NCBI GenBank assembly: GCA_016699145.1
Contig: CP064962.1
Coordinates: 540,001 to 572,000 of the forward strand
DNA length: 32,000 nt
DNA from: Candidatus Saccharimonadota bacterium
GTDB taxonomy: Bacteria > Patescibacteriota > Gracilibacteria > UBA1369 > 2-02-FULL-48-14
Direction of reading: 5' to 3'
The notes under the pieces are model-generated. The model was not told where the DNA came from. It did not search any database and saw only the letters and a list, made by a program, of their open reading frames with translations. A program made the position numbers and the translations under genes. This document shows positions 4,031-21,303 of this stretch, one piece after another (the first letter of the stretch is position 1; every line of letters begins with the position of its first letter).

Positions 4031-6012
4031 ATGTCTCGTATCATCGGAATCGATCTCGGAACCACCAACACCTGTTTTGCCGTCATGCAAGGAGGAGACG
4101 CCACCGTCATTCCCAACGTTGAAGGCAAAAACACCACCCCTTCCATCGTGGCCACTAAAGACGGCGAGCGCCTCGTGGGCGAACCCGCCAAGCGTCAAAT
4201 GGTGATGAACGAAAAAAACACCGTCTTTTCAGCCAAGCGCCTCATCGGGCGTCAATTCAATGAAGTGAAAGAGCTCGTTGCACGCTTCCCTTTCGAAACC
4301 AAAAAGTCCAGCAACGGCGAAGTGGACATTGTGCTTGAAGGCAAGGCCAAGAAGCCCGCCGAAATCAGCGCGATGGTTTTGCAAAAAGTAAAAGCGGACG
4401 CTGAAAAATACCTCGGTGAACCTGTAACTCGCGCGGTGATCACCGTGCCCGCTTACTTCAACGACGCACAGCGCCAAGCTACGAAAGACGCCGGAGAAAT
4501 CGCCGGCCTCACCGTGGAACGCATCATCAATGAGCCCACCGCCGCAGCCCTGGCCTACGGTCTAGACAAGCACACTGGAGACAAAAAAATCGCAGTCTTC
4601 GACCTGGGAGGAGGAACTTTTGACGTGTCCATTTTGGAACTCGGCGACGGCGTCTTCCAAGTGCTGTCCACCAACGGAGACACCTTACTGGGAGGAGATG
4701 ACTTCGACAATGTGCTCATCGAATGGCTCGCGGATGAATTCAAAAAACAAGAAGGCATCAACCTTCGCGAAGACAAAGTGGCACTGCAACGCCTCAAAGA
4801 AGCCGCCGAAAAAGCAAAGATCGAGCTCTCTAGCCAACATGAAACCGAGATCAATTTGCCTTTCATCACCGCCGACAAAAACGGTCCCAAGCACATGGTG
4901 CTCAAGCTCTCTCGCAGCAAGATGGAAGACCTGGTGGCTCCGCTCCTCGAGCGGCTCATGAAGCCTTGTAAGCAAGCCATCGACGACTCCGAAGTTTACG
5001 TGAGCGACATCGACGAAGTGGTACTCGTGGGAGGAATGACTCGCATGCCCGCCGTGCAAGCCAAGGCCAAAGAAATCTTCGGCAAAGAACCTCACCGTGG
5101 CATCAACCCCGATGAAGTCGTAGCCCTCGGCGCTGCGATTCAAGGAGGAGTTTTGCAAGGTGACGTGAAAGACGTTTTGCTGCTCGACGTGACTCCTCTG
5201 ACCTTGGGAATTGAAACCCTCGGCGGAGTGATGACCCCCATGATCGAACGCAACTCGACCATTCCCACTTCAAAATCCCAAGTGTATTCCACCGCAGCAG
5301 ACAACCAACCTTCCGTGGACATCCGCATTTTCCAAGGTGAACGCCCCTCGCTCAAGACAACAAATTCCTCGGAAACTTCCAACTCGACGGCATCCCTCCG
5401 GCCCCGCGCGGCGTGCCTCAAATTGAAGTGACTTTCGACATCGACGCGAACGGAATCATGAATGTGAAGGCCACTGACAAAGCCAGCGGAAAAGTGCAAC
5501 ACATCACTATCACCGGCCACTCCGGACTCTCCAAAGAAGAGATTGAAAAAATGAAGAAAGAGGCCGAACTCCATGCCGACGAAGACAAGAAAAAGAAGGA
5601 TGCCGTAGAAGCACGCGTGAACGCCGAATCCCTCGTCTCACAAACCGAGCGCACCCTCAAAGACCTCGGAGAAAAAGTACCTGCAGATGTGAAGGGGGCC
5701 GTAGAAAGCAAGGTCGCCGACCTTAAAAAAGTCCTCGAAAACAAGGACGCGACGCCCGACGAACTCAAGACAGCCAGCGAAGCCCTCTCCAGCGAAATCC
5801 AAAAAATCGGCTCCGCAATGTATCAACAGCCCGGCGCCGGCGCCCCTGGTGCAGAAGGCATGGGTGGGATGGGCGGCGCAGCCGGCAGCGACGACCCCGA
5901 TGTGAAGGTCTACCCCAAGGATTCAAAGCCTGAAGACGCTGCATCCGACACAAAACCCGACGATGAAAATGGCGAAAATAAGGGGCCGACTATTGATGGA
6001 GAGGCGAAGTAG
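4031..6012 (+). CDS. dnaK: Hsp70 chaperone DnaK, split in this sequence by a 1-nt frame break (ORF pieces 4031..5431 and 5413..6012)
   Basis: Hsp70 signatures '[15 protein letters not shown]', '[10 protein letters not shown]' and '[10 protein letters not shown]' occur in the first piece. The second frame reads '..[41 protein letters not shown]' from 5344 onward. The frames meet at the C-run 5344-5347. The restored length is 660 aa. Confidence 0.95.
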
Positions 6013-7647: not shown

Positions 7648-8967
7648 ATGCTCGACCCCAAATTCATCGTTCAAAATCCAGCCGCTGTGAAGACTGCTGC
7701 CGAAAAAAAACACATCAGATTTGACGTGGAACATTTCATTCAAGTGGATGAGAATCGCCGCGCTGTGACCGCCGACCTCGAAGCCATTCGCGCCGAAAAA
7801 AACGCGGCAAACGACAAAATCAAAGCCCTCAGCGGCAATGAAAAACAAGCCGCCATCGAAGAAATGCGCAGCAAAGGCGATCTCGAAAAATCCCTCGGCG
7901 AAGAGCTCAATCGAATCGAAATGGAATGGAAAGGTCTGCTGCTACGTGCCCCAGCCCCTTGCTCGCCCGAAACGCCGGAAGGAAAAGACGACAGCGAAAA
8001 TGTCGAACTCTACAAGGTCGGTGACTTGCCTCAATTCAAAGACCAAGACGGCGTCGTGTTCGAGCCCAAAGACCACATCACACTGGGTGAAGAACTGGAC
8101 ATCATCGACGTAGAACGCGGCGTGAACATCGGTGGTTCTCGCAGCTACTTTCTCAAAAACGAAGGCGCACTTTTAGAACTCGCCATACTCCGCTTCACCC
8201 TCGACAAGCTCGTGTCCAAAGGCTTTGTGCCCTTCCTTCCTCCCCTCATGGTGAATCGTAATGCCATGGAGGGCACCGGTTATTTCCCCGGTGGCGAAGA
8301 ACAAGCCTACACTCTCGGTGTGAAACGTCCAGAAGACGAGCATATTGAAAGCGATGATAAATACCTCATTGGGACCAGCGAAGTTCCTGTGACTTCTTAC
8401 CACCGTGATGAAATCCTCAAAGAAGACGAATTGCCCAAACGTTACGCCGGTTATTCCTATTGCTTCCGCCGTGAAGCCGGCACGTATGGAAAAGACACCC
8501 GCGGCCTCTATCGCATTCATCAATTCCAAAAAGTAGAACAAGTTGTGCTCTGCAAAAACGACCCCGAGGAATCCAAAAAAATGCATGAAATGCTCCTGAA
8601 AAATGCCGAAGAAGTTTTACAAGATTTACACCTGCCTTATCGCGTCGTAGCCGTGTGCAGCGGAGACATGGGCCAGGGCCAATACTACAAAAACGACATC
8701 GAAACTTGGATGCCCAGCCGAGGCAACTACGGCGAAACGCACTCTTGCTCCACCTTCCACGAATTCCAAGCCCGCCGTCTCAACATCCGTTACAAAGACG
8801 CAGACGGCAAAATGCAATTCGTCCACACCCTCAACAACACCTGCGTGGCCTCCCCTCGCATCCTCATTCCCATCCTCGAAATCTACCAAAACGCCGACGG
8901 ATCAGTGACGATTCCGACGGTGCTAAGGCCTTATATGGGTGGACGCGATAAAATCACTAGGAAATAA
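7648..8967 (+). CDS. serS: Seryl-tRNA synthetase
   Basis: It has an N-terminal coiled-coil arm followed by a class-II core. Core motifs are 'YCFRREAGTYGKDTRGLYRIHQFQKVE' (motif 2), 'GETHSCSTFHEFQARR' and 'LNNTCVASPRILIPILE' (motif 3). Confidence 0.96.
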   Translation: MLDPKFIVQNPAAVKTAAEKKHIRFDVEHFIQVDENRRAVTADLEAIRAEKNAANDKIKALSGNEKQAAIEEMRSKGDLEKSLGEELNRIEMEWKGLLLRAPAPCSPETPEGKDDSENVELYKVGDLPQFKDQDGVVFEPKDHITLGEELDIIDVERGVNIGGSRSYFLKNEGALLELAILRFTLDKLVSKGFVPFLPPLMVNRNAMEGTGYFPGGEEQAYTLGVKRPEDEHIESDDKYLIGTSEVPVTSYHRDEILKEDELPKRYAGYSYCFRREAGTYGKDTRGLYRIHQFQKVEQVVLCKNDPEESKKMHEMLLKNAEEVLQDLHLPYRVVAVCSGDMGQGQYYKNDIETWMPSRGNYGETHSCSTFHEFQARRLNIRYKDADGKMQFVHTLNNTCVASPRILIPILEIYQNADGSVTIPTVLRPYMGGRDKITRK

Positions 8968-8972
8968 GCTGA

Positions 8973-9353
8973 ATGAAACCACTGGATCTCCTGCTAAATC
9001 GTTTCACTCAAAAACGCATTCAAATCGAAGGTGATCATGTGGAATACGAAGATATATCAAGAAATCTGAGTCTAAATTTAAACGAAGTGACTCACATGAA
9101 TTATGGAATTACCCAGCTATACATCAATGGAATAAGAATGAACCGATTCTATAACATTGATCTCCAAACGGCAGACCCAAAACGAAAGATAAAGATTATC
9201 ATGCAAGTCATTGCACCTTTTAAAAGATTCTACCAGAATACAGAAATCAAATTCCAAGAGATCATCAACCATCTAAAACCAACCGCCAAGCGCCTCGCAA
9301 ATGATGCTTTAAAAAATTGTCGAATGGAGAAACTTTGGAGCTTGCAAAGGTAA
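8973..9353 (+). CDS. Hypothetical protein (126 aa) in an AT-rich islet
   Basis: The ORF starts 6 nt after the serS stop. Its composition is clearly more AT-rich than the flanking housekeeping genes. No motif recognised. Confidence 0.45.
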   Translation: MKPLDLLLNRFTQKRIQIEGDHVEYEDISRNLSLNLNEVTHMNYGITQLYINGIRMNRFYNIDLQTADPKRKIKIIMQVIAPFKRFYQNTEIKFQEIINHLKPTAKRLANDALKNCRMEKLWSLQR

Positions 9354-9602
9354 CCATGAATCGTAAGGGTATAGAAATGACGAAAGGGGTTTTTAAAAAA
9401 AGAAAAGGCAATGATCCCATGGAAAGAATCGTATCTAGAGATCAACCTATTTAAATGACCCAGCTAATAAATTTAAAAAACAAATCAAAATACCCTATGT
9501 AATGGATGGCATTGTTTTACAATTTTTGCTGGAACATCTCTGGAATGAAGGGCGCACACTGGCTCTTGCCCGAGGTGAAAAAATAGCTCCAATCATTTAG
9601 TT

Positions 9603-9655
9603 TCAAGCCCACCTCACCGGCTCCAAGTCATTCCATTCCAAATATTCGTTCGTTT
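9603..9655. repeat. Direct repeat copy 1: orphan duplicate of the last 17 codons plus stop of ung
   Basis: tcaagcccacctcaccggctccaagtcattccattccaaatattcgttcgttt is identical (53/53) to 10789-10841. Confidence 0.95.
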
Positions 9656-9664
9656 CTTGAACTC

Positions 9665-10693
9665 CTATAGCCAAAGTATCATGCCATAACCAGCATTTCG
9701 AGTATCCGGAAATATATAGATCGAAAACACATAATTATGGTCAGGAGAAAATCCAACGGCAGGCGCCCATCTACTGCCAGATGTAGCCTCAGGATCTTTA
9801 AAGATTACACAACGCCATTCTCTCTGTGCAGGATAATCTGTAACTGGGCTCTGAACATAGTTACAACCCATTACCACCTGCGAAGCATCCACCTGAAATG
9901 AGAAGTCCCCAGGGCGAAGTTCTAGCACACGGAAATTAGATGCCTGTACCGCTTCAATAATTTCTTTAGCTGTTGCCCACTTTTCTCTAGGGTCAGCCGC
10001 AACACGCCGCATTGCGTCTGCATGAGGTAAAAGTACAAACTGACCTTCTGGAGTGACTATTACATTTGTAATATCTAAGTCTCGCTGTCTAATTGCTGGC
10101 TCACCATCATCTTCATAAACTCCAGCTAAACAAGGCCCCCCGGGCAGTGCAGCGGCCAACTTGAGCTTAGCAGCGTCATTTGCTAATAAATATTCTCGCA
10201 ATCGAGCTTCCAGTCCGTACTCACCTTCCCAAACTTGACCTGCTGTTTTATCCTCTCTGAGGGCAGCAGGATAGTATCCTGAATCATATCCTTCTGGCCT
10301 GCCTCCTCTTGTCATTACTACAATACCTCGATCAAAATCTTCCTTCATTTGCCCAATATAAGCCTCTAAAAGCTCACCAAGTCTTTCTGGTACTTGAGTG
10401 GTAATACAAGGTTTGATAAGCTCTCCCTTCGTAGAAATCGCTTCATCCTCACCTTTTTGCATCCCAGCAAGCACTTGACTTATTTGACCCTTAATCCTTT
10501 CCAATGAGAGTGTTCCAAAGTCAGCTGAAAAATTTAATGGTTTCCCCTCAATTCTCATCATTATTGCAGGGAGAAGTGCATCGAGTCTGTGCTCTCGGGT
10601 GAGAAGCTCGAGAAGCAAGGATTTGGCCTGCCCCTTATTCACAGGTATGGCATAGCGAAGTTCTTCAGATAAGAAAGATGGACGTAACTCCAT
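9665..10693 (-). CDS. Hypothetical protein, 342 aa, the sole cargo of the repeat-flanked cassette
   Basis: It is a long uninterrupted ORF with an ATG start, preceded by a consensus promoter. I recognise no catalytic or family motif, and specifically no Tyr/Ser recombinase, DDE or HUH signatures. Confidence 0.75.
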   Translation of the reverse strand: MELRPSFLSEELRYAIPVNKGQAKSLLLELLTREHRLDALLPAIMMRIEGKPLNFSADFGTLSLERIKGQISQVLAGMQKGEDEAISTKGELIKPCITTQVPERLGELLEAYIGQMKEDFDRGIVVMTRGGRPEGYDSGYYPAALREDKTAGQVWEGEYGLEARLREYLLANDAAKLKLAAALPGGPCLAGVYEDDGEPAIRQRDLDITNVIVTPEGQFVLLPHADAMRRVAADPREKWATAKEIIEAVQASNFRVLELRPGDFSFQVDASQVVMGCNYVQSPVTDYPAQREWRCVIFKDPEATSGSRWAPAVGFSPDHNYVFSIYIFPDTRNAGYGMILWL

Positions 10694-10724
10694 ACAGAAT
10701 TAATAAAAATAATAAAAAGAACGA

Positions 10725-10753
10725 ATCATATCCATTCTACTTAATTTTGTCAA
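10725..10753 (-). promoter_or_regulatory. Sigma-70-type promoter for the 342-aa ORF (TTGACA, 17-nt spacer, TATGAT)
   Basis: The minus strand reads ttgaca (10753-10748), a 17-nt spacer, then tatgat (10730-10725). This is about 32 nt upstream of the ATG at 10693. Confidence 0.55.
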
Positions 10754-10788
10754 AGGAACATGTTTATGCACAAAATAGAACCGCCTCC

Positions 10789-10841
10789 TCAAGCCCACCT
10801 CACCGGCTCCAAGTCATTCCATTCCAAATATTCGTTCGTTT
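10789..10841. repeat. Direct repeat copy 2: the functional 3' end of ung
   Basis: It is identical to 9603-9655 and encodes ..KTNEYLEWNDLEPVRWA* on the minus strand. Confidence 0.95.
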
Positions 10842-11454
10842 TGCTGAACGGTTTGGATCCAAAAAAACCGCTGTAGGCCGAAAAAGGGGATGGATGAGCC
10901 GCCTTCAAAATACAATGTTTTTCTGTGTCTATTTTCGCTCCTTTTTCTTGGGCATAACGGCCCCACAAAATAAAAACCAAATGCTCTTTTTCGCGCGACA
11001 AAACATCCACCACGGCATCTGTGAATTCCTCCCAACCCTTGTGCTGATGCGAACCCGCTTTGTGCGCTTCCACCGTGAGCGTGGCATTGAGCAGCAAAAC
11101 CCCCTGCTCAGCCCAGTCGTCTAGACATCCTTCCACGCGAAGTGCACCCCCCACATCTTCCTGAATTTCTTTAAAAATATTTTGCAAAGAAGGGGGCAGC
11201 GTCACCCCTGGATTCACCGAAAAACACAGCCCATTCGCCTGCCCGACTCCGTGGTATGGATCTTGCCCCAAAATCACGACCTTCACTTTTTCAAAAGGAC
11301 ACAATTCAAACGCCCGAAAAATATTCACAGGCGTAGGGAAAACTTTCTTCTGCCCGTACTGCGCACGCACAAAATCAGTCAATTTCACAAAGTAAGGCTT
11401 TTCAAACTCCTCAGCCAGCTGGGTTTTCCACGAGGGATGAATTTTAACGTCCAT
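10789..11454 (-). CDS. ung: Uracil-DNA glycosylase, family 1
   Basis: It carries the 'GQDPYHG' water-activating motif, 'GVLLLN', and the 'HPSPFS' Leu-loop region. At 221 aa it is the typical length. Confidence 0.95.
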   Translation of the reverse strand: MDVKIHPSWKTQLAEEFEKPYFVKLTDFVRAQYGQKKVFPTPVNIFRAFELCPFEKVKVVILGQDPYHGVGQANGLCFSVNPGVTLPPSLQNIFKEIQEDVGGALRVEGCLDDWAEQGVLLLNATLTVEAHKAGSHQHKGWEEFTDAVVDVLSREKEHLVFILWGRYAQEKGAKIDTEKHCILKAAHPSPFSAYSGFFGSKPFSKTNEYLEWNDLEPVRWA

Positions 11455-11556
11455 GCGCCAATTCTAACGAGTCCGGCTTGCTTATTCAAAGGTTCTTGCT
11501 CTTCCTTTTTTTTAAGATAGCCTCTAATATTTCCACCGTCCTTTCATTTTTCTTCC

Positions 11557-11955
11557 ATGAAAAAAATCCTCCGCATCGTTTTGAAAGTTTTTTTATGCCT
11601 CATTTTGGTCGCTCCCATTTTGGGAAGCCTGGGCATTTTCCCCGAACCCACCGCCGATCTCTACAACACGCCTGAAGCTTTCGCCTTCATCCAAACCTTG
11701 ATGGATGCAAAATACATCCCACTTCTCAATACTTTGATTTTCGCCCTCGCCATTGTGCTCACCTTCATGAACCGCATGGCTTTGGTCGCTCTGCTCATCC
11801 TCCCCATCACCGTGAACATCGTGGCCTTTCACTGGGTGCTCGACGGCGGTCCTTTCACAAGCGGAGCCATCATGGGCAATCTTTTGCTGCTCATCAACCT
11901 GTACTTTTTATGGGACAATCGAAAAAGCTATGGCGTCCTCTTGAAAAAATCCTAA
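11557..11955 (+). CDS. Small integral membrane protein (about 4 TM helices)
   Basis: It has a hydrophobic N-terminus 'MKKILRIVLKVFLCLILVAPILG' and three further hydrophobic stretches. It is divergent from ung. Family not recognised. Confidence 0.65.
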   Translation: MKKILRIVLKVFLCLILVAPILGSLGIFPEPTADLYNTPEAFAFIQTLMDAKYIPLLNTLIFALAIVLTFMNRMALVALLILPITVNIVAFHWVLDGGPFTSGAIMGNLLLLINLYFLWDNRKSYGVLLKKS

Positions 11956-11968
11956 ATCCCACGCCTTC

Positions 11969-12727
11969 GTGAGCAGCCTCCAAAAACAAAACGCCCCCCT
12001 TCGCGAACGACTGCACAAAGTCATCGCCGCCAGTGGACTCTGCTCTCGTCGTGAAGCCGAAGAACTCATCGCCAAAGGTCGTGTCCACGTGAATGGCAAA
12101 CGGATTCAAAAAATGGGCATCAAAGTCAGTCCTCTCGACAAAATTGAAGTGGACGGACGCGTCTTACCCGAAAAAGCCGCTCCCCTCACCCTTGCACTGC
12201 ACAAACCCGTGGGTCTCCTGACCTCCAAAAAAGATCCCTTCCACTCTGAAACAGTGATGGATCTTCTGCCCACTTCCTATCAACATTTGAACCCCATTGG
12301 CCGCCTCGACAAAGACAGCGAAGGCTTGCTCTTACTCACCTCTGACGGCGCTCTTTTGGAGCGCCTCACCCATCCTAAGTACGGCCATGTGAAGACCTAC
12401 GAAGTGCTGGTTCAGGGCGACGTCACCGACAAAGAAATCGAGCTGCTGCGCACCGGTCCCATCCACCTCGATGACTACTTGCTACGTCCCATGCAAGCTC
12501 GCATCCTGAGCCAAGAGGTGTCTCGCATGAGCGGCAAAACTTATACTTGGCTCGAAATGAAATTGGGGGAAGGCCGCAAACGCCAAATCCGTCGCGTGAT
12601 GGAAGGTCTCGGCTTCCCTGTACGACGACTCATTCGCACCGCCATTGGAAAAGTTCAGCTCGGCAAATTGAAACCAGGTAAAACACGTCCTTTAACAGAT
12701 GAGGAATTGCGTGACCTTTATTCTTAA
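11969..12727 (+). CDS. rRNA pseudouridine synthase, RsuA/RluB family, with an N-terminal S4 domain
   Basis: The S4 motif is 'RLHKVIAASGLCSRREAEELIAKGRVHVNG' and the catalytic-Asp motif is 'GRLDKDSEGLLLLTSDG'. It has a GTG start. Confidence 0.9.
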   Translation: MSSLQKQNAPLRERLHKVIAASGLCSRREAEELIAKGRVHVNGKRIQKMGIKVSPLDKIEVDGRVLPEKAAPLTLALHKPVGLLTSKKDPFHSETVMDLLPTSYQHLNPIGRLDKDSEGLLLLTSDGALLERLTHPKYGHVKTYEVLVQGDVTDKEIELLRTGPIHLDDYLLRPMQARILSQEVSRMSGKTYTWLEMKLGEGRKRQIRRVMEGLGFPVRRLIRTAIGKVQLGKLKPGKTRPLTDEELRDLYS

Positions 12728-12788
12728 AGTGGACAATACTGATTTTGGGTGATCTACAACATTTTTCAAAAAAATCCAGCTCATTTAT

Positions 12789-12816
12789 TCGACAGATGAG
12801 TCTTTCCTTATATAAT
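12789..12816 (+). promoter_or_regulatory. Sigma-70-type promoter upstream of rpoB (TCGACA, 16-nt spacer, TATAAT)
   Basis: tcgaca is at 12789-12794 and a perfect tataat at 12811-12816. This implies a leader of about 110 nt containing small hairpins (12827-12839 and 12874-12889). Confidence 0.5.
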
Positions 12817-12932
12817 TACGCGCGATAAGCCCTCGGCTTCGATTGTGTTGAGAGAGGGGGCACAGGTAAAACTCGCCGTGACGACGGCGTGCGTTTGCTT
12901 CTGCTTTACATCCTTAAAATCGTCTTCGGCCT

Positions 12933-15900
12933 ATGCCCAAAACCACTGCAAAGACAAAGACGTCCGCTTCAGCGTCCCCTACGGCGCTTGGACGTACTTC
13001 GACGAAGCCTTTGGAACGTGTCTACTTTGTGGACAACCAATGGAACGTCGAGCTCCCAGACCTTATTGAAATCCAAACGGATTCCTACAAATGGTTTCTA
13101 GGAGAAGGGATTCGCGAACTTCTCGATGAAATCTCCCCCATTTCCGACTTTTCCGGAAAGAAACTCGAGCTCCAATTCTTGGATCACTCTCTGGGTGAAT
13201 GCAAATACACGGCTGAACAATGCCGCCGCAAAAATCTCTCTTACGAAGCGCCTCTTAAAGTGCACGTTCAACTCATCAACAAAGAGAGCGGAGAAATCAA
13301 GGAGCAGGACGTATTTCTCGGCCCCATCCCTCTGATGACCGACAACGGTAGCTTCATTGTGAACGGAATCGAACGCGTGGTGGTTTCCCAAATCGTGCGC
13401 AGCCCCGGTGTGTTCTTCTCTAAAAACGCTGCTGCCCCTGGCATGCACAACGGAAAAATCATCCCTAAGCGCGGAGCTTGGCTTGAAATTGAAACTGACA
13501 AAAAAGGCATCATCACGGTGAAAATCGACCGCAAACGCAAAATCTACGTGACTTCTATGCTGCGTGTATTCGGATTCGACACCGATAAAAAAATTCTCGA
13601 CCTCTTCAAAAACGATGTGAAAGATCCCATCCACGATTACATGATGCTGACTCTTGAAAAAGATCCAGCCAAAACCATGGATGAAGCCTACAAAGCCATC
13701 TACAAAAAGATTCGTCCTGGAGATTTGGCCACGCCTGAAAATGCCAAGGCTCTCATCGAATCTTTGTTCTTCGACTACAAGAAGTACGACATGGGCTCTG
13801 TGGCTCGTTACAAAATCAACCGTCGTTTCGACCTCAAAACTCCGAACGAACGTAAATTCCACACCTTCCAAACCGACGATTTCATTCTGATTTTGAAGCA
13901 CCTCATCAAGCTCAATAACAAAGAAGCAGAGCCCGATGACATCGATCACCTTTCTAACCGCCGCATTCGCCCGGTGGGTGAACTCGTGCAAAACAAGTTC
14001 CGCGTGGGACTGCTTCGCACCGAGCGCATCGCCAAAGACCGTATGACCGTGATGGACCTCGAAACTGTGACTCCGACCCAACTCGTGAACTCTCGTCCAA
14101 TCACTGCCGCGCTTCGCGAATTCTTCGCAAGCTCTCAGCTTTCTCAATTCATGGATCAAACAAACCCTCTCGCCGAGCTCGAGCACAAACGCCGTCTCTC
14201 TGCGATGGGGCCTGGAGGTCTCTCTCGTGAACGTGCGTCTTTCGACGTTCGTGACGTACACCCTTCTCACTATGGAAGGATCTGTCCAATCGCAACCCCT
14301 GAAGGACCCAACATCGGTCTCGTGGTTCACCTAGCGACCCATGCGCGCCTCAACAAATACGGCTTCATTGAAATGCCGCTCCGCGAAGTGCTTCACAGTT
14401 TGAAGAACGATGGAAAAGCTGCCCTCGGACACACTCTGGCTGAAACCCTAGAGGGCATCAAAGCCGGTACCAAACTCGGAGAAAAAGAGGTGAAGGCACT
14501 CGCAAAATCCAAGGACCTCAAAGAAGTTCCCGTGACCGCAACTCTCGGAAACAAGATCTCTTACTTCGACGCCGAGGATGAACGTGAAATCATCTACGCT
14601 CAAGCCGGAACTCCCATCGCAGAAAATGGAGACCTCGAAGAAGACACTGCCGTTGCTCGCAAAAACGGAGAACCGATCCTCACCGACGAAAAAGAAGTGA
14701 CGCACATTGACATCTCCCAACAGCAGATCATTTCTGTGTCCACTTCCCTCATCCCTTTCTTGGAGCACGACGACAACACCCGTGCCTCCATGGGGTCCAA
14801 CATGCAACGTCAAGCCGTTCCTCTCTTGAAACCTCAAGCTCCCATTATAGGAACCGGTATGGAGGGTAGCGCCGGACGCAACTCTCAACAAGTGCTCGTG
14901 GCTGAAGACAGTGGAACCGTGTCTTATGTGGACGGATCTCGTATCGACATCATCTACGACTCTGGACGCAAAGCCAGCTACTCTCTCGATGTTTACCGCC
15001 GCACCAACCAAGGCACCTCCTTCCACCAACGCGCTCGCTGTGATGCGGGTCAAAAGGTGAAAAAAGGCGACATTTTAGCCGATGGGGCTTCCACCGAAAT
15101 GGGAGACATCGGTCTGGGACAAAACGTGCTCGTGGCCTACATTCCTTGGGAAGGTTACAACTTCGAAGATGCCGTTATTTTGTCCAGTCGCCTGGTCAAA
15201 GACGACCGTTTCAGCTCTGTCCACATTGAAGATTTCACCATCGACGTGCGCGACACCAAGCTGGGACCCGAAATCGTGACTCGCGACATCCCCAACGTGG
15301 GCGAGGCCCGCCTTAAGGATCTCGATGAAAATGGCATCATTCGCGTGGGCGCTTCTGTTCGTGAAGGAGACATCCTCGTGGGTAAAATCACCCCTAAAGG
15401 AGAAACCGAACTCACTCCTGAAGAGCGCCTGCTAAGAGCCATCTTCGGAGACAAAGCTCGCGACGTGAAGGACACTTCCCTGCGCCTCCCCGGTGGAGAA
15501 GGAGGAAAAGTGACCAGCGTGACCGTATTCTCTCGTGAAAAAGGCGACGAACTCGAAAACGGAGTCATTCAACAAATCCGTGTGTCTTTGGCTCAAACCC
15601 GTCGCATTCAAGTCGGGGACAAAGTCGCCGGACGTCACGGTAACAAAGGTGTGATCTCCATCATCGTTCCCGAAGAAGACATGCCCTTCATGCCCGATGG
15701 AACTCCCGTAGACGTGGTTTTGAACCCGCTCGGTGTGTCCAGCCGTATGAACATTGGACAAATTTTGGAAACCCACCTCGGTTGGGCCGCGAAGAAACTC
15801 GGACTCTACATGGCCACCCCTGCCTTGAACGGAATCACCAACGAACAAATCAAAGAGATGCTCATCAAGGCTGGCCTCCCTGAAAATGGAAAGATTCAGC

Positions 15901-17491: not shown

Positions 17492-20400
17492 ATGATGACT
17501 GACCCAAAGAAAGCTCCAGTACTCTTCGATGCTATCGCGATTGCTGTGGCTTCCCCCGAGCAAATTCTCTCTTGGTCTCACGGTGAAGTTAAAAAACCTG
17601 AAACCATCAACTACCGCACTCAAAAACCCGAACGCGACGGTCTCTTCTGCGAACGTATTTTTGGACCGATTAAAAACTGGGAATGTGCTTGTGGAAAATA
17701 TAAGCGTATTCGATACAAAGGTGTGATTTGTGAAAAATGTGGAGTGGAGGTGACCCGCTCCATCGTTCGCCGCACTCGCATGGGCCACATCACACTCGCC
17801 GTGCCCGTGACTCACATTTGGTTCTTACGTTCAACTCCAAGCCGCATTGGGCTCCTCCTGAACTTGCCAGTAAAAATTCTGGAACAAATCGTGTACTTTG
17901 CCGCGTACATCATTACCGAAGTCGATCAAAAGGCTAAAGAGGAAGCCTTGGTTCAACTGGATGAAGAATTCAAAAACTATAGAAAAGATGTGATCCGCGA
18001 ATACGAAGAACGCATCAAGAGTGGAACCGGGAACATAAAGGAAATTGAAAAGGAACAGGCTGCCAAAATTGAGGAATTGGTGGAAACCGCTGAGCAAGCT
18101 CGCAAAGACCTCGAGTCTTTAGAGAACAGCACCGTGCTCACCGAGCTCGATTACCGCGACATGTCCATGAAGTTCGGCCACGTATTCAAGGCCGGAACAG
18201 GGGCAGAATCCTTGCACAAACTCATCCGCGACATGAACCTCGAAGAAGAGATTAAAAAGCTCGACATCGAAATTGAAAAGTCCAGCGGACAAAAGCGCAC
18301 CAAGCTCATGAAACGCATCAAGCTCATGGGTTCCCTAGTGAAGGCCGGCATCAATCCTGAATGGATGATCATGACCGTGCTCCCCGTGATTCCACCCGAT
18401 CTTCGCCCCATGGTGCAACTCGATGGAGGACGTTTTGCCGCTTCCGATCTCAACGATCTGTATCGCCGTGTGATCAACCGTAACAACCGTCTCAAGCGTC
18501 TCATCCAAATCGGAGCACCTGAAGTGATCTGCCGAAATGAAAAACGTATGCTGCAAGAAGCGGTAGACACTTTGATCAACAACAGCGCGCGCCAAGGAAA
18601 ACCGTGTTCAACAGCGGGGATAAGCGCAAACTTCGCTCCCTTTCAGATATGCTCAAGGGTAAACAGGGACGCTTCCGCCAAAACCTGCTCGGAAAACGTG
18701 TGGACTATTCCGGTCGCAGCGTCATTGTGATCGGTCCTAAGCTCAACCTGGACCAATGTGGACTTCCCAAGCTCATGGCACTCGAACTCTTCAAGCCTTT
18801 CGTCATTGGAAAACTCATCGAAGGGGGCTACGCTCACAACATCAAGAGCGCGGAAAAGATGATTCAAAACAACGACCGCGTCATTTGGGATATGCTTGAA
18901 GAAGCGACCAAAGAACGTTTTGTGCTCCTCAACCGTGCACCCACCCTGCACCGTCTCGGAATCCAAGCGTTCCGCCCCGTGCTCGTAGAAGGAAAAGCCA
19001 TTCAAGTTCACCCCCTCGTCTGTGCCGCCTTCAACGCGGACTTCGATGGAGACCAAATGGCCGTGCACGTTCCCCTCTCTCAAAAGGCTCAAGAAGAAGC
19101 GCGTGAACTCATGTGCTCCGCAAAGAACCTTTTGAAGCCTTCCGCCGGAGAACCCATCACCGTACCCATTCAGGACATGGTGCTTGGACTCTACTACCTC
19201 ACCGCAGAGCGTCCAGGTAAGAAGGGGGAAGGAAAAATCTTCGGTAATCTTGAGGAGGCCCTCATTGCCGAGCAGTTTGGTGAACTTCACCTGCAATCCA
19301 AGATCAAGATTCGTTTCAACGGTGAAATGATCGAAACCACCCTCGGACGTGCCATTTACAACACCGTGGTGCCCGAACAAATGGGTTACCAAAATCACAC
19401 CCTCAAAAAGAAAGAGATCTCTGAAATCGTAGCCTTAGTTTTCGAAAAATGCGGCACCGAACCCACCGCCAAATTCTGTGACGACCTCAAAGCACTCGGC
19501 TTTCAATACGCCACTCGTTCCGGAATTTCTATGGCCAGCGCCGATCTCATCATTCCTAAAGAGAAGGTCAAGATCATGAAAGAATCCGAAGAAATTGTGG
19601 ATCAAATTCACGAGTTCTACAACAAGGGCTTCATCACTGAAGATGAACGCTACAACCAAGCCATTAAGATTTGGTCCAAAACCAAGAACGAGATCGGTAA
19701 AGCAATGATCCTTGGCTTCGAACCCGAAAACGACATCTACTACCAAGTGGACTCTGGGGCTCGTGGTAACTGGGGACAAATCACCCAGCTCTGTGGAATG
19801 AAGGGACTCGTGGCCAACCCTGCCGGTAAGACCATCGAACTTCCCATCAAATCCAACCTCAAAGAAGGTTTCTCCATTCTTGAATACTTCATTGCAACGC
19901 ACGGAGGACGTAAAGGTAAGTCCGACACCGCGCTCAAAACCGCTGAAGCGGGTTACCTCACTCGCCGTCTCGTGGATGCTGTTCAAGACATCATCATTAA
20001 GGAAGACGATTGTGGATCCAAGGACACCCACTTGGTGACTCGTGAAGAATCCGAAAAGATTGGTGAACCGTTTGAAAACCGCATTTTCGGCCGCACTCTC
20101 GGTGCCGACGTCATGGAAAAGACGGGCAAGAAAGTGGCCATCCCGAATGGAACGCCCATCGACAAGGCTGCCGTGAAGATTCTTAAAGAAAACGACGTCA
20201 GCGAAGTGCGTGTGCGCTCTGTAATGACCTGTCTGACTCTGAACGGAGTCTGCCAAAAATGTTACGGACGTGACCTCGGATCCAGCCAAGAAGTGGAGAT
20301 GGGAACCGCCGTCGGAATCGTGGCCGCTCAATCCATCGGGGAACCGGGAACTCAGCTCACCATGCGTACTTTCCACATGGGAGGAATCGCGAACGAAGAC

Positions 20401-21303
20401 GACATCACTCAAGGTCTCACCCGTGTGGAAGAACTCTTCGAAGCCCGCACACCTAAAAAGCCTACCGTATTGGCCGAAATCGATGGAAAAGTACAGGTGA
20501 CTTCTAAGGGAAACCAAATCCACATCACCATCACTCCCACCAACATTCCCACCGAAACCATCGATGTGGAAGACGGCATGGAAGTGCTCGTAAAGAAGGA
20601 CGACAAGGTCAGCCTTAAAGATGTGCTCGCTGAAAAGAAAGGCAAGAAACTCCGCTCCCCTATGGATGGAGTGGTTGTGAAAGCGGGAAAGAAAGAAATC
20701 GTCATTCAACCGGACCTTGCCGAACAAGTCTACAAGGTGGACGCCGGCAAAAGCATTAAAGTGAAAACTGGAGACGTCGTGGCTCGTGGAACCGCTCTCA
20801 CCAGCGGACACATGAACCTCCGCAAACTCATGAAGCTTTCAGACATCTACACCACTCAAAAATACATCATGAGTGAGGTGCAGAGCATCTACGCGTCTCA
20901 AGGTCAGTCCATCAACGACAAGCACATCGAAATCATCACTCGGCAAATGTTCTCTAAGGTTCGCATCGTGGAACCTGGAGCCAGCAACTTCCTGCCCGGT
21001 GAAGTCGTGGATTACCAAACTGTGTTCGAAGAAAACATAAAGCTCGAAGGAGACAAACAAGAGCCGATCAAGTTCGAACGTTTGCTGCTCGGTCTCACTC
21101 GTATCGCCTTGCACACTCGAAGTTGGCTCTCCGCCGCTTCCTTCCAAGAAACCATACGTGTGCTCGTCGAAGCCTCCACCACTCACCGCGTGGACATGCT
21201 CGACGGTCTCAAAGAAAACGTCATCATTGGTCGCCTCATCCCTGCAGGAGAAACCTTCCGCAAGAAGATGCGTGGCGAAGCCATTGATACGCGTGAGGAT
21301 TAG
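17492..21303 (+). CDS. rpoC: DNA-directed RNA polymerase beta' subunit, split in this sequence by a 1-nt frame break (ORF pieces 17492..18730 and 18604..21303)
   Basis: It has the Zn finger '[23 protein letters not shown]', then '[25 protein letters not shown]' and the catalytic '[12 protein letters not shown]'. The frames join at ..NNSARQGKP|[19 protein letters not shown].. around 18602-18604. The restored length is 1270 aa. Confidence 0.95.

Follow-up and report, generated by a model that had tools for sequence, protein, structure and literature searches.

How did a single gene with its own promoter come to lie between two copies of the 3′ end of ung? This question is raised by a 32,000-nt stretch of contig CP064962.1 (the window), which comes from a metagenome-assembled genome of a Candidatus Saccharimonadota bacterium. 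It was found that a 53-nt segment at 9603-9655 (R2) is identical at 53 of 53 positions to the segment at 10789-10841 (R1), in direct orientation. The copies lie 1,186 bp apart, and the intervening segment of 1,133 bp contains a promoter (TTGACA-17-TATGAT) and one intact 342-aa open reading frame (ORF), here called ORF342. The insertion in the window is genuine and, to judge from the perfect identity of the repeat copies, recent, and it is akin to known integrative elements. As to the mechanism, I lean, with some reserve, towards a crossover insertion of a promoter-and-gene cassette behind ung that was catalysed in trans, a site-specific recombinase being the favoured enzyme, and that produced a unit of the cis-mobilizable element (CIME) type.

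The borders of the repeat are informative. The ung gene (uracil-DNA glycosylase; 10789-11454, minus strand, 221 aa; Pfam UDG PF03167, E=1.6e-17) is intact, and R1, on the same strand, is its functional 3′ end, encoding a C-terminal peptide (..TNEYLEWNDLEPVRWA*) that is conserved among orthologs. R1 begins at 10789, the final base of the ung stop codon, and the stop codon is the outer boundary of the repeat; the outward neighbours of the two copies are unlike (c at 10788, t at 9602). The 53 nt comprise the stop codon, 16 full codons, and 2 nt of a Lys codon, not 17 codons plus the stop codon as counted in the preliminary description of this DNA, which had been made from the letters alone. Its other statements about the duplication were borne out. 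The two copies are the only matches within the window even with 3 mismatches allowed, a 53/53 match arose in 0 of 100 dinucleotide shuffles of the sequence (none is expected by chance), and past the other end of the repeat the shared sequence is only a shifted GTTCA pentamer (tttcttgaac versus ttttgctgaac).

R2 (minus strand) is non-coding and repeats, at a displaced position, the final 53 nt of ung with the stop codon included. It sits 9 nt downstream of the stop codon of ORF342 (9665-10693, minus strand), and low-GC non-coding DNA (9354-9602) follows it. The 9-nt junction (9656-9664), which reads GGAGTTCAAG on the minus strand, overlaps the GTTCA pentamer, and GTTCA also occurs just upstream of R1. 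On the other side of ORF342, a 95-nt cassette leader (10694-10788, minus strand) consists of 36 nt, the -35 hexamer (10753-10748), a 17-nt spacer, the -10 hexamer (10730-10725), and the 5′ untranslated region (UTR); the sigma-70 promoter has 11 of 12 matches. Since only 9 nt separate the ORF342 stop codon from R2, the cassette is without the 3′ UTR and terminator found in homologous cassettes (those of two family loci, L010 and L014, share a 3′ UTR of about 130 nt with a terminator). The predicted RNA fold downstream of ORF342 is no better than those of shuffles (z = -0.28), and Rfam gave no match near the cassette. The preliminary description had also seen no integrase, transposase, or inverted repeat between the copies, and this stood. 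The sole ORF of the bracketed unit gave no recombinase, integrase, relaxase, transfer, or transposase match in Pfam, NCBIfam, PHROGs, or PADLOC, and no inverted repeats were found at the cassette ends when the region 8000-13000 was examined.

What kind of event leaves such an arrangement? The geometry requires a single reciprocal exchange between the chromosome and a 1,186-bp circle, the alternative being a duplication during repair. A single crossover with such a circle, or an equivalent duplication of an attachment (att) site, had been proposed at the outset, and the repeat layout and the end of the identity at the ung stop codon agree with it. In the mechanism that I favour, a small circle (53 bp + 1,133 bp) would have shared the 53-bp segment with the chromosomal ung 3′ end. 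One reciprocal crossover within this segment would put the cassette directly after the ung stop codon and rebuild an intact ung ending in R1, while the other ung end, R2, would be displaced beyond the cargo, ahead of the original downstream DNA. The reaction would be catalysed in trans, because the unit encodes no recombinase, and preferably by a site-specific recombinase, because members of the ORF342 family occupy recombinase-less, repeat-bracketed units at tRNA-Ser 3′ ends (described below). Once inserted, the gene would be driven by its own promoter, with read-through from ung as a probable second source of transcripts. The junctions of this clean and recent event are base-exact, and its attB, attP, and circular junction can be predicted: the empty site would read ...CCGTTCAGCA-[53 nt]-AACTAAATGATTGG..., and the junction of the circular form (attP) would read ...TGGCTATAGGAGTTCAAG-[53 nt]-GGAGGCGGTTCTATTTTG....

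The boundary at the stop codon disfavours a random staggered break. It is predicted by crossover of either type, site-specific or homologous. A site-specific system would produce it because the gene end borne by the element needs to match only up to the stop codon, while homologous exchange would produce it because homology between genomes ends there, the downstream interval being variable.

Is the cassette ancestral at this site? A search of 5.8 billion proteins gave best ung matches with 86%, 79%, and 77% identity; equally long orthologs span 86% to 65%, and with a best ung of 86% the databases hold no strain-level relative. The three closest relatives keep the gene order rpoB-rluB-ung-interval-serS-DUF6941 x2-dnaK. 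Their ung-serS intervals are all different, containing Pro_dh and a 260-aa ORF, a 301-aa ORF, and a 124-aa ORF, respectively, and ORF342 is in none of the three. The comparison of this interval among relatives had been suggested in the preliminary description, and so had the case that would speak against insertion, namely relatives that all carry the gene behind ung without a repeat; none of the three has the gene there. No nucleotide or protein match to 8968-10788 was found in the relatives' intervals, except for the 53-nt copy, which matches the relatives' ung ends at 77-86%. In the closest relative (L016) the figure is 86%, and its ung 3′ end differs from the repeat at 7 of 51 positions. 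Because the relatives match only the 53-nt copy, the comparison indicates that the repeat is native ung sequence, that ORF342 is not ancestral at the ung-serS site, and that this interval is a hot spot. The event would have been an insertion at this site and not a loss elsewhere. Exact-protein look-ups of ung, ORF342, and a paralog of ORF342 led to no other contig, and a literature search for ung as an integration site gave nothing relevant.

What does the cassette carry? ORF342 is annotated at NCBI as IPG41_02935 on the 1,338,973-bp contig. Among the 5.8 billion proteins it has 10 relatives besides itself, one of which, IPG41_04320, is the paralog in the same genome, and all of the named relatives are from Peregrinibacteria/Gracilibacteria-type bacteria of the candidate phyla radiation (CPR). 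An exhaustive profile search gave about 100 family clusters at 50% identity. In several family loci (L001/L002, L003-L006, L009, L012, and L023), the ~106-114 nt at the end of the homolog recur downstream of it as a template repeat (TR), after which come a bAvd gene and an RVT_1 reverse transcriptase (RT) gene. The mismatches between the variable repeat (VR) and the TR, the downstream copy, fall at TR adenines in 105 of 107 cases from five loci, a pattern that is the signature of a diversity-generating retroelement (DGR). ORF342 is homologous to these VR-bearing proteins over its whole length. Since the alignment with the DGR-linked homologs reaches the last residue, homology places ORF342 in a small family of DGR variable proteins (VPs) confined to the CPR. 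Its VR-aligned segment is the last 38 codons (9668-9781, minus strand). Thus, the preliminary description was right about the contents of the 1,133 bp, a promoter and one 342-aa ORF, but not in taking the ORF for an orphan of unknown kind. As to the promoter that the preliminary description made part of the unit, it is simply that of the gene. Homologs without an adjacent RT occupy unrelated contexts, each with its own TTGACA-17-TATxxT promoter (L010, L022, and L014), so that the gene relocates together with its promoter.

A tblastn search with the RT and Avd proteins of the family found no match in the window, no TR-like copy of 9601-9820 is present in the 32 kb, and no RT from CP064962.1 was among the best 120 RT relatives in a profile search. 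ORF342 is called an orphan copy here because the window contains no RT, Avd, or TR. It could be the remote target of a DGR elsewhere in the genome, or it could be a fossil, since the GC-rich 3′ end conserved in the VRs of the homologs (GGCGCGGTGCTCTGGCTAAGGGGC) is degenerate in ORF342 (GGCATGATACTTTGGCTATAG). Remote, non-adjacent targets are known, and DGRs act on distant targets in trans (PMC5758913). ORF342 resembles them in being homologous to VR-bearing targets while lying away from RT, Avd, and TR; however, the defining mark of a remote target is a distant TR whose differences from the VR are all of the A-to-N type, and the window has none for ORF342. Two features tell against DGR reverse transcription as the origin of the cassette, and this idea was rejected: a promoter belongs to the unit, and the copy of the ung end is found downstream of the VR, a position that template switching from a TR transcript would not give.

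The protein family is notable in itself: it is diversified by DGRs, it has no Pfam domain, and no C-type lectin fold was detected. A scan of 52 family members revealed no common Pfam domain and two isolated weak matches. The AlphaFold (AF2) model of ORF342 is confident (predicted local distance difference test, pLDDT, 83; core above 90), and it had no Foldseek match in PDB or BFVD. VRs have been reported systematically on C-type lectin folds (PMC8144416), and the absence of a detectable one in the ORF342 family is unexpected given that report. Judging from the model, the family may not use the C-type lectin fold of other VR domains. The VP family was found neither in IMG/VR by a family scan nor in the phages and plasmids of INPHARED and PLSDB by tblastn.

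Are there parallel cassettes in the loci of this family? The tRNA genes predicted in them are all tRNA-Ser (7 of 7; anticodons tga, gga, cga, and gct), located in L007 (3913-4002), L011 (783-872 and 5245-5333), L012 (5938-6027), L013 (9162-9252), and L014 (9603-9690 and 12431-12522). In 6 of the 7, the 3′ end of the tRNA-Ser faces a VP or DGR unit; the exception, the second copy in L014 (12431-12522), closes off the island with its 5′ end. A tRNA-Ser 3′ end (5056-5080) likewise terminates L022, where the order is conserved element (CE), VP, AAA_14/DUF4143, and tRNA-Ser. In L012, a complete DGR (VP-TR-Avd-RT) forms a 3,007-bp unit bracketed by a 79-nt direct repeat with 1 mismatch (2862-2940 and 5869-5947). 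This repeat consists of the last 10 nt of tRNA-Ser(gga) and 69 nt of flank, and no recombinase gene was found in the 7.6-kb contig. In L011 (783-5333), a 4.4-kb island containing a 218-aa ORF and AAA_14/DUF4143 ATPase, HTH, RhuM, and VP genes lies between two identical copies of tRNA-Ser(cga). The repeat is at least 89 nt and includes the whole tRNA, and the tRNA 3′ end marks the exact start of the identity.

Furthermore, a conserved element of about 85 nt (CTGGCGGAGAGTCGTGGACGACCTTAGAACC..ATCGAGGCTAATCAT..CAGTTCAATGTGTTTGCGAAAACGGTTTTGG) was revealed in these loci. It opens with the last 10 nt of tRNA-Ser and looks like a degenerate tRNA 3′ half. An nhmmer profile located 7 copies in 5 loci, always upstream of a VP or RhuM-VP unit and between cassettes: L012 (2044-2130 and 2926-3012), L011 (1605-1677 and 2893-2982), L022 (2701-2787), L009 (9645-9728), and L003 (4781-4864). 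The element had no Rfam match in the scanned loci L011 and L022, and no convincing conserved fold or covariation was seen on either strand. It is a candidate att site, resembling the att sites expected for a common recombinase. No recombinase domain was detected in ORFs in or beside the family units, and no integrase was detected in about 12 related loci. Taken together, the family loci suggest that cassettes accumulate in tandem at specific sites through an enzyme whose gene lies elsewhere. The unit of the window follows the same pattern as those of L012 and L011, having a VP-family gene, no recombinase, and long direct repeats containing a host-gene 3′ end.

Several further observations concern these loci. 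ORF342 lies in the interval beside serS, and the tRNA-Ser link could reflect an integration-site preference or a functional tie with serine. The second tRNA-Ser copy of L011 is at a contig end, where a loop in the assembly graph, formed by integrated and circular forms, is also possible. L012 has an 86-nt tandem-like repeat (2617-2702 and 2737-2822; 90% identity, 120-nt spacing) inside a 226-aa ORF, which occupies a cassette beside the DGR. The DGRs of the family are consistently followed by genes for a ResIII helicase (~857 aa) and an N6_N4 DNA methyltransferase (L001 8817-13039; L003 8733-12914; L023 2788-7013). L023 adds an HTH_17 (excisionase-like) gene, and RhuM or AAA_14/DUF4143 genes often flank the VP gene.

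Bracketing repeats were tested around all orphan homologs with 600-nt flanks, and only the window and L010 stand out. L010 is CP064978.1 of Peregrinibacteria, which carries a different family member and was counted as a separate genome for this reason. Its orphan VP cassette has an ATCTAAA heptamer array on either side (9614-9659 and 10854-10881), and the 20.7 kb contain no others. This case bears on the alternative without any crossover, in which the capture of a linear fragment produced a long target-site duplication or another repair product, by fill-in of a 53-nt stagger or by template switching. The L010 arrays and the GTTCA microhomology near one junction of the window would suit such an origin. 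Against it, only about 1 in 53 of the stagger positions that preserve ung would end exactly at the stop codon, and the bracket lengths of the related cases vary widely. I know of no system that makes 50-nt duplications of this type, and a repair duplication has only a slender chance of being correct. L015 also has a heptamer array, AGTAATG, downstream of its VP gene (1763-1846).

Could homologous recombination have made the insertion? In a Campbell-type insertion-duplication, RecA would join a circularised fragment, consisting of the last 53-60 nt of ung and the promoter-ORF342 segment, to the resident ung. Neither a dedicated recombinase nor an att site takes part, and the fragment would have come by uptake from a very close relative or from within the genome. 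The topology (target fragment, insert, target fragment) is the same as that of the window. Perfect identity over 53 bp is adequate for RecA as judged by minimal homology lengths, and the identity stops at the stop codon, where conservation between relatives also stops and an unrelated downstream interval begins. The distal junction, 9 nt past the ORF342 stop codon and with GTTCA microhomology only, is what an arbitrary fragment end would give, and the variable lengths of the parallel repeats (53, 79, and at least 89 nt) fit homology better than a fixed core. However, this explanation presupposes a donor with ORF342 directly behind an ung end identical to that of the window, and none was found; the closest ung among the 5.8 billion proteins is 86% identical and differs in its 3′ end at 7 of 51 positions. 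It also leaves the conserved 85-nt boundary element and the exclusive association with tRNA-Ser in the family unexplained. Moreover, Campbell insertion-duplication is known mainly as a laboratory tool, and no natural source of a 1.19-kb circle with 53 bp of ung was identified. I regard it as a serious competitor, though not as the likely account of the window.

How does the unit compare with known mobile elements? The preliminary description recognised no described class for it. Nevertheless, a recombinase-less unit flanked by att sites corresponds to a CIME, which is a decayed remnant of an integrative and conjugative element (ICE) or integrative and mobilizable element (IME) that keeps attL and attR without an integrase (PMC5704250). 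As in CIMEs, the unit of the window is flanked by direct repeats, one of which coincides in part or whole with the target gene's end, it is free of recombination and transfer genes, and any mobility depends on an enzyme supplied in trans; the tandem accretion described for CIMEs is seen in L011 and L012. The differences are that the unit of the window is 1.19 kb with one gene and a CPR host, that its target is ung instead of a tRNA gene or a described protein-gene target, and that decay, the origin that characterises CIMEs, is here only one possible origin. In addition, no autonomous element with the 53-bp att was found among the larger ORFs of the window scanned against Pfam or in IMG/VR, INPHARED, and PLSDB. 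The unit is CIME-like, and it is assignable to no specific family, as neither a cognate recombinase nor an autonomous relative was found.

If decay is taken literally, a larger element (a prophage, ICE, or IME) with its own integrase would have integrated at the ung 3′ end, and internal deletion would have left attL, one cargo gene, and attR. This matches the definition of a CIME (PMC5704250), and in the DGR-linked loci the VP is found among island cargo: RhuM, AAA_14/DUF4143, ResIII helicase with N6_N4 methyltransferase, HTH_17, and toxin-antitoxin pairs. On the other hand, the deletion must have reached within 9 nt of the gene and 36 nt of the promoter while sparing both perfect 53-bp repeats, and no integrase was seen in about 12 related loci. 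Such decay is improbable.

Trans-catalysed insertion by a site-specific recombinase has several points against it as well. No recombinase was identified in any locus or unit scanned, and the site-specific step is a conjecture; RecA, too, could work with 53 perfectly matched bp. The cut 9 nt past the stop codon, without a 3′ UTR, looks like an arbitrary breakpoint and not like a dedicated att arm. The 85-nt element (starting TGGCGGAGAG) is absent near the cassette of the window by nhmmer profile and pattern searches. With neither this element nor a tRNA-Ser, the cassette may not belong to the tRNA-Ser-linked system; no tRNA gene is predicted anywhere in the window, and the surroundings of the repeat have no similarity to tRNA-Ser. 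The search for the ung repeat elsewhere, recommended in the preliminary description, was also unproductive. By self-BLAST, a second ung 3′ end of its own was found in 0 of 11 ung-bearing loci (2 of relatives and 9 retrieved from metagenomes with a degenerate pattern of the ung C-terminus), and four more loci of relatives showed no sign of one. The halves of the 53-mer had no match in IMG/VR, and IMG/VR and the phage and plasmid collections yielded no autonomous element with a 53-bp att, no empty site, and no circular junction.

The metagenome-assembled source is a further caution, since dnaK (4031-5431 / 5413-6012) and rpoC (17492-18730 / 18604-21303) appear frameshifted, each being split into overlapping ORFs. 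The splits are probably assembly indel errors and not real frameshifts. Is the cassette then an artefact of the assembly or polishing of long reads? The residual indel errors that the splits suggest would speak for it. However, indels do not make a 1.1-kb insertion with an intact, homolog-bearing 342-aa gene, a promoter, and clean 53-bp borders, and the protein of ORF342 is annotated in the NCBI record (IPG41_02935). An artefact is thus most improbable.

Integration into the 3′ ends of protein genes is known: phage 21 and e14 integrate in icd, and ICESt1 and ICESt3 in fda. As with the unit of the window, the element carries the 3′ end of the gene, the gene stays intact, the displaced end becomes the distal direct repeat, and the identity block extends to the gene end. 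In contrast, these elements encode an integrase and span tens of kb, while the unit of the window has one gene and no integrase. Integron cassettes offer a partial parallel: each is about 1 kb long, carries one gene, and is inserted by a recombinase whose gene lies elsewhere, and the cassettes of L011 and L012 are separated by a conserved site. They differ in that the unit of the window has no attC-like imperfect palindrome, no intI/attI platform, and no integrase among the larger ORFs scanned, and in that its cassette has its own promoter and is flanked by copies of a host-gene end. An integron gene cassette was ruled out by the lack of a downstream inverted repeat or fold, the 11/12 promoter of its own, and the lack of an integrase among the larger ORFs scanned against Pfam. 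A transposon or insertion sequence was likewise ruled out: the unit has no transposase and no terminal inverted repeats, and 53 nt is far beyond typical target-site duplications. As for dif/Xer sites, used by integrative mobile elements exploiting Xer (IMEX), no dif-like palindrome was evident in the repeat and the GC skew had no switch, no formal test being made.

What would the trans-catalysed insertion mean? DGR targets are commonly regarded as stationary components of a DGR locus or a prophage. If VP genes and their promoters move as minimal att-flanked cassettes, this would explain how tiny CPR genomes acquire and reshuffle hypervariable surface or binding proteins. In a broader and rather doubtful extension, which rests mainly on the related loci, VP genes and even whole DGRs of Peregrinibacteria/Peribacteria may travel as recombinase-less cassettes that are inserted in trans at the 3′ ends of conserved genes, usually tRNA-Ser with the 85-nt element and here ung, leaving repeats of 50-90 nt. 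If true, this would point to an unrecognised recombination system in a lineage with few known mobile elements, that is, to an integron-like shuffling of hypervariable-protein genes, for which the window would supply the first case with a protein-coding gene as target. Were the event no more than an isolated RecA crossover, the window would show a neat but commonplace insertion-duplication.

The remaining features of the window are minor. The rest of the variable ung-serS interval, outside the bracketed unit (8968-9602), is low in GC (0.36-0.38) and contains ORF126 (8973-9353, plus strand), which has no homolog in the relatives' intervals. ORF342, ORF126, and ORF132 have no profile match in Pfam, NCBIfam, PHROGs, or PADLOC. 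The larger ORFs of the window scanned against Pfam gave no integrase match. A 117-aa ORF at 24106-24459 matches the N-terminal domain of IS4/5-family transposases (DUF4096); this fragment is the sole transposase-like sequence of the window and lies about 13 kb from the cassette. Lastly, a gene of the Na+/Ca2+ exchanger family (PF01699; 16517-17482) separates rpoB from rpoC, breaking the usual rpoBC pair.

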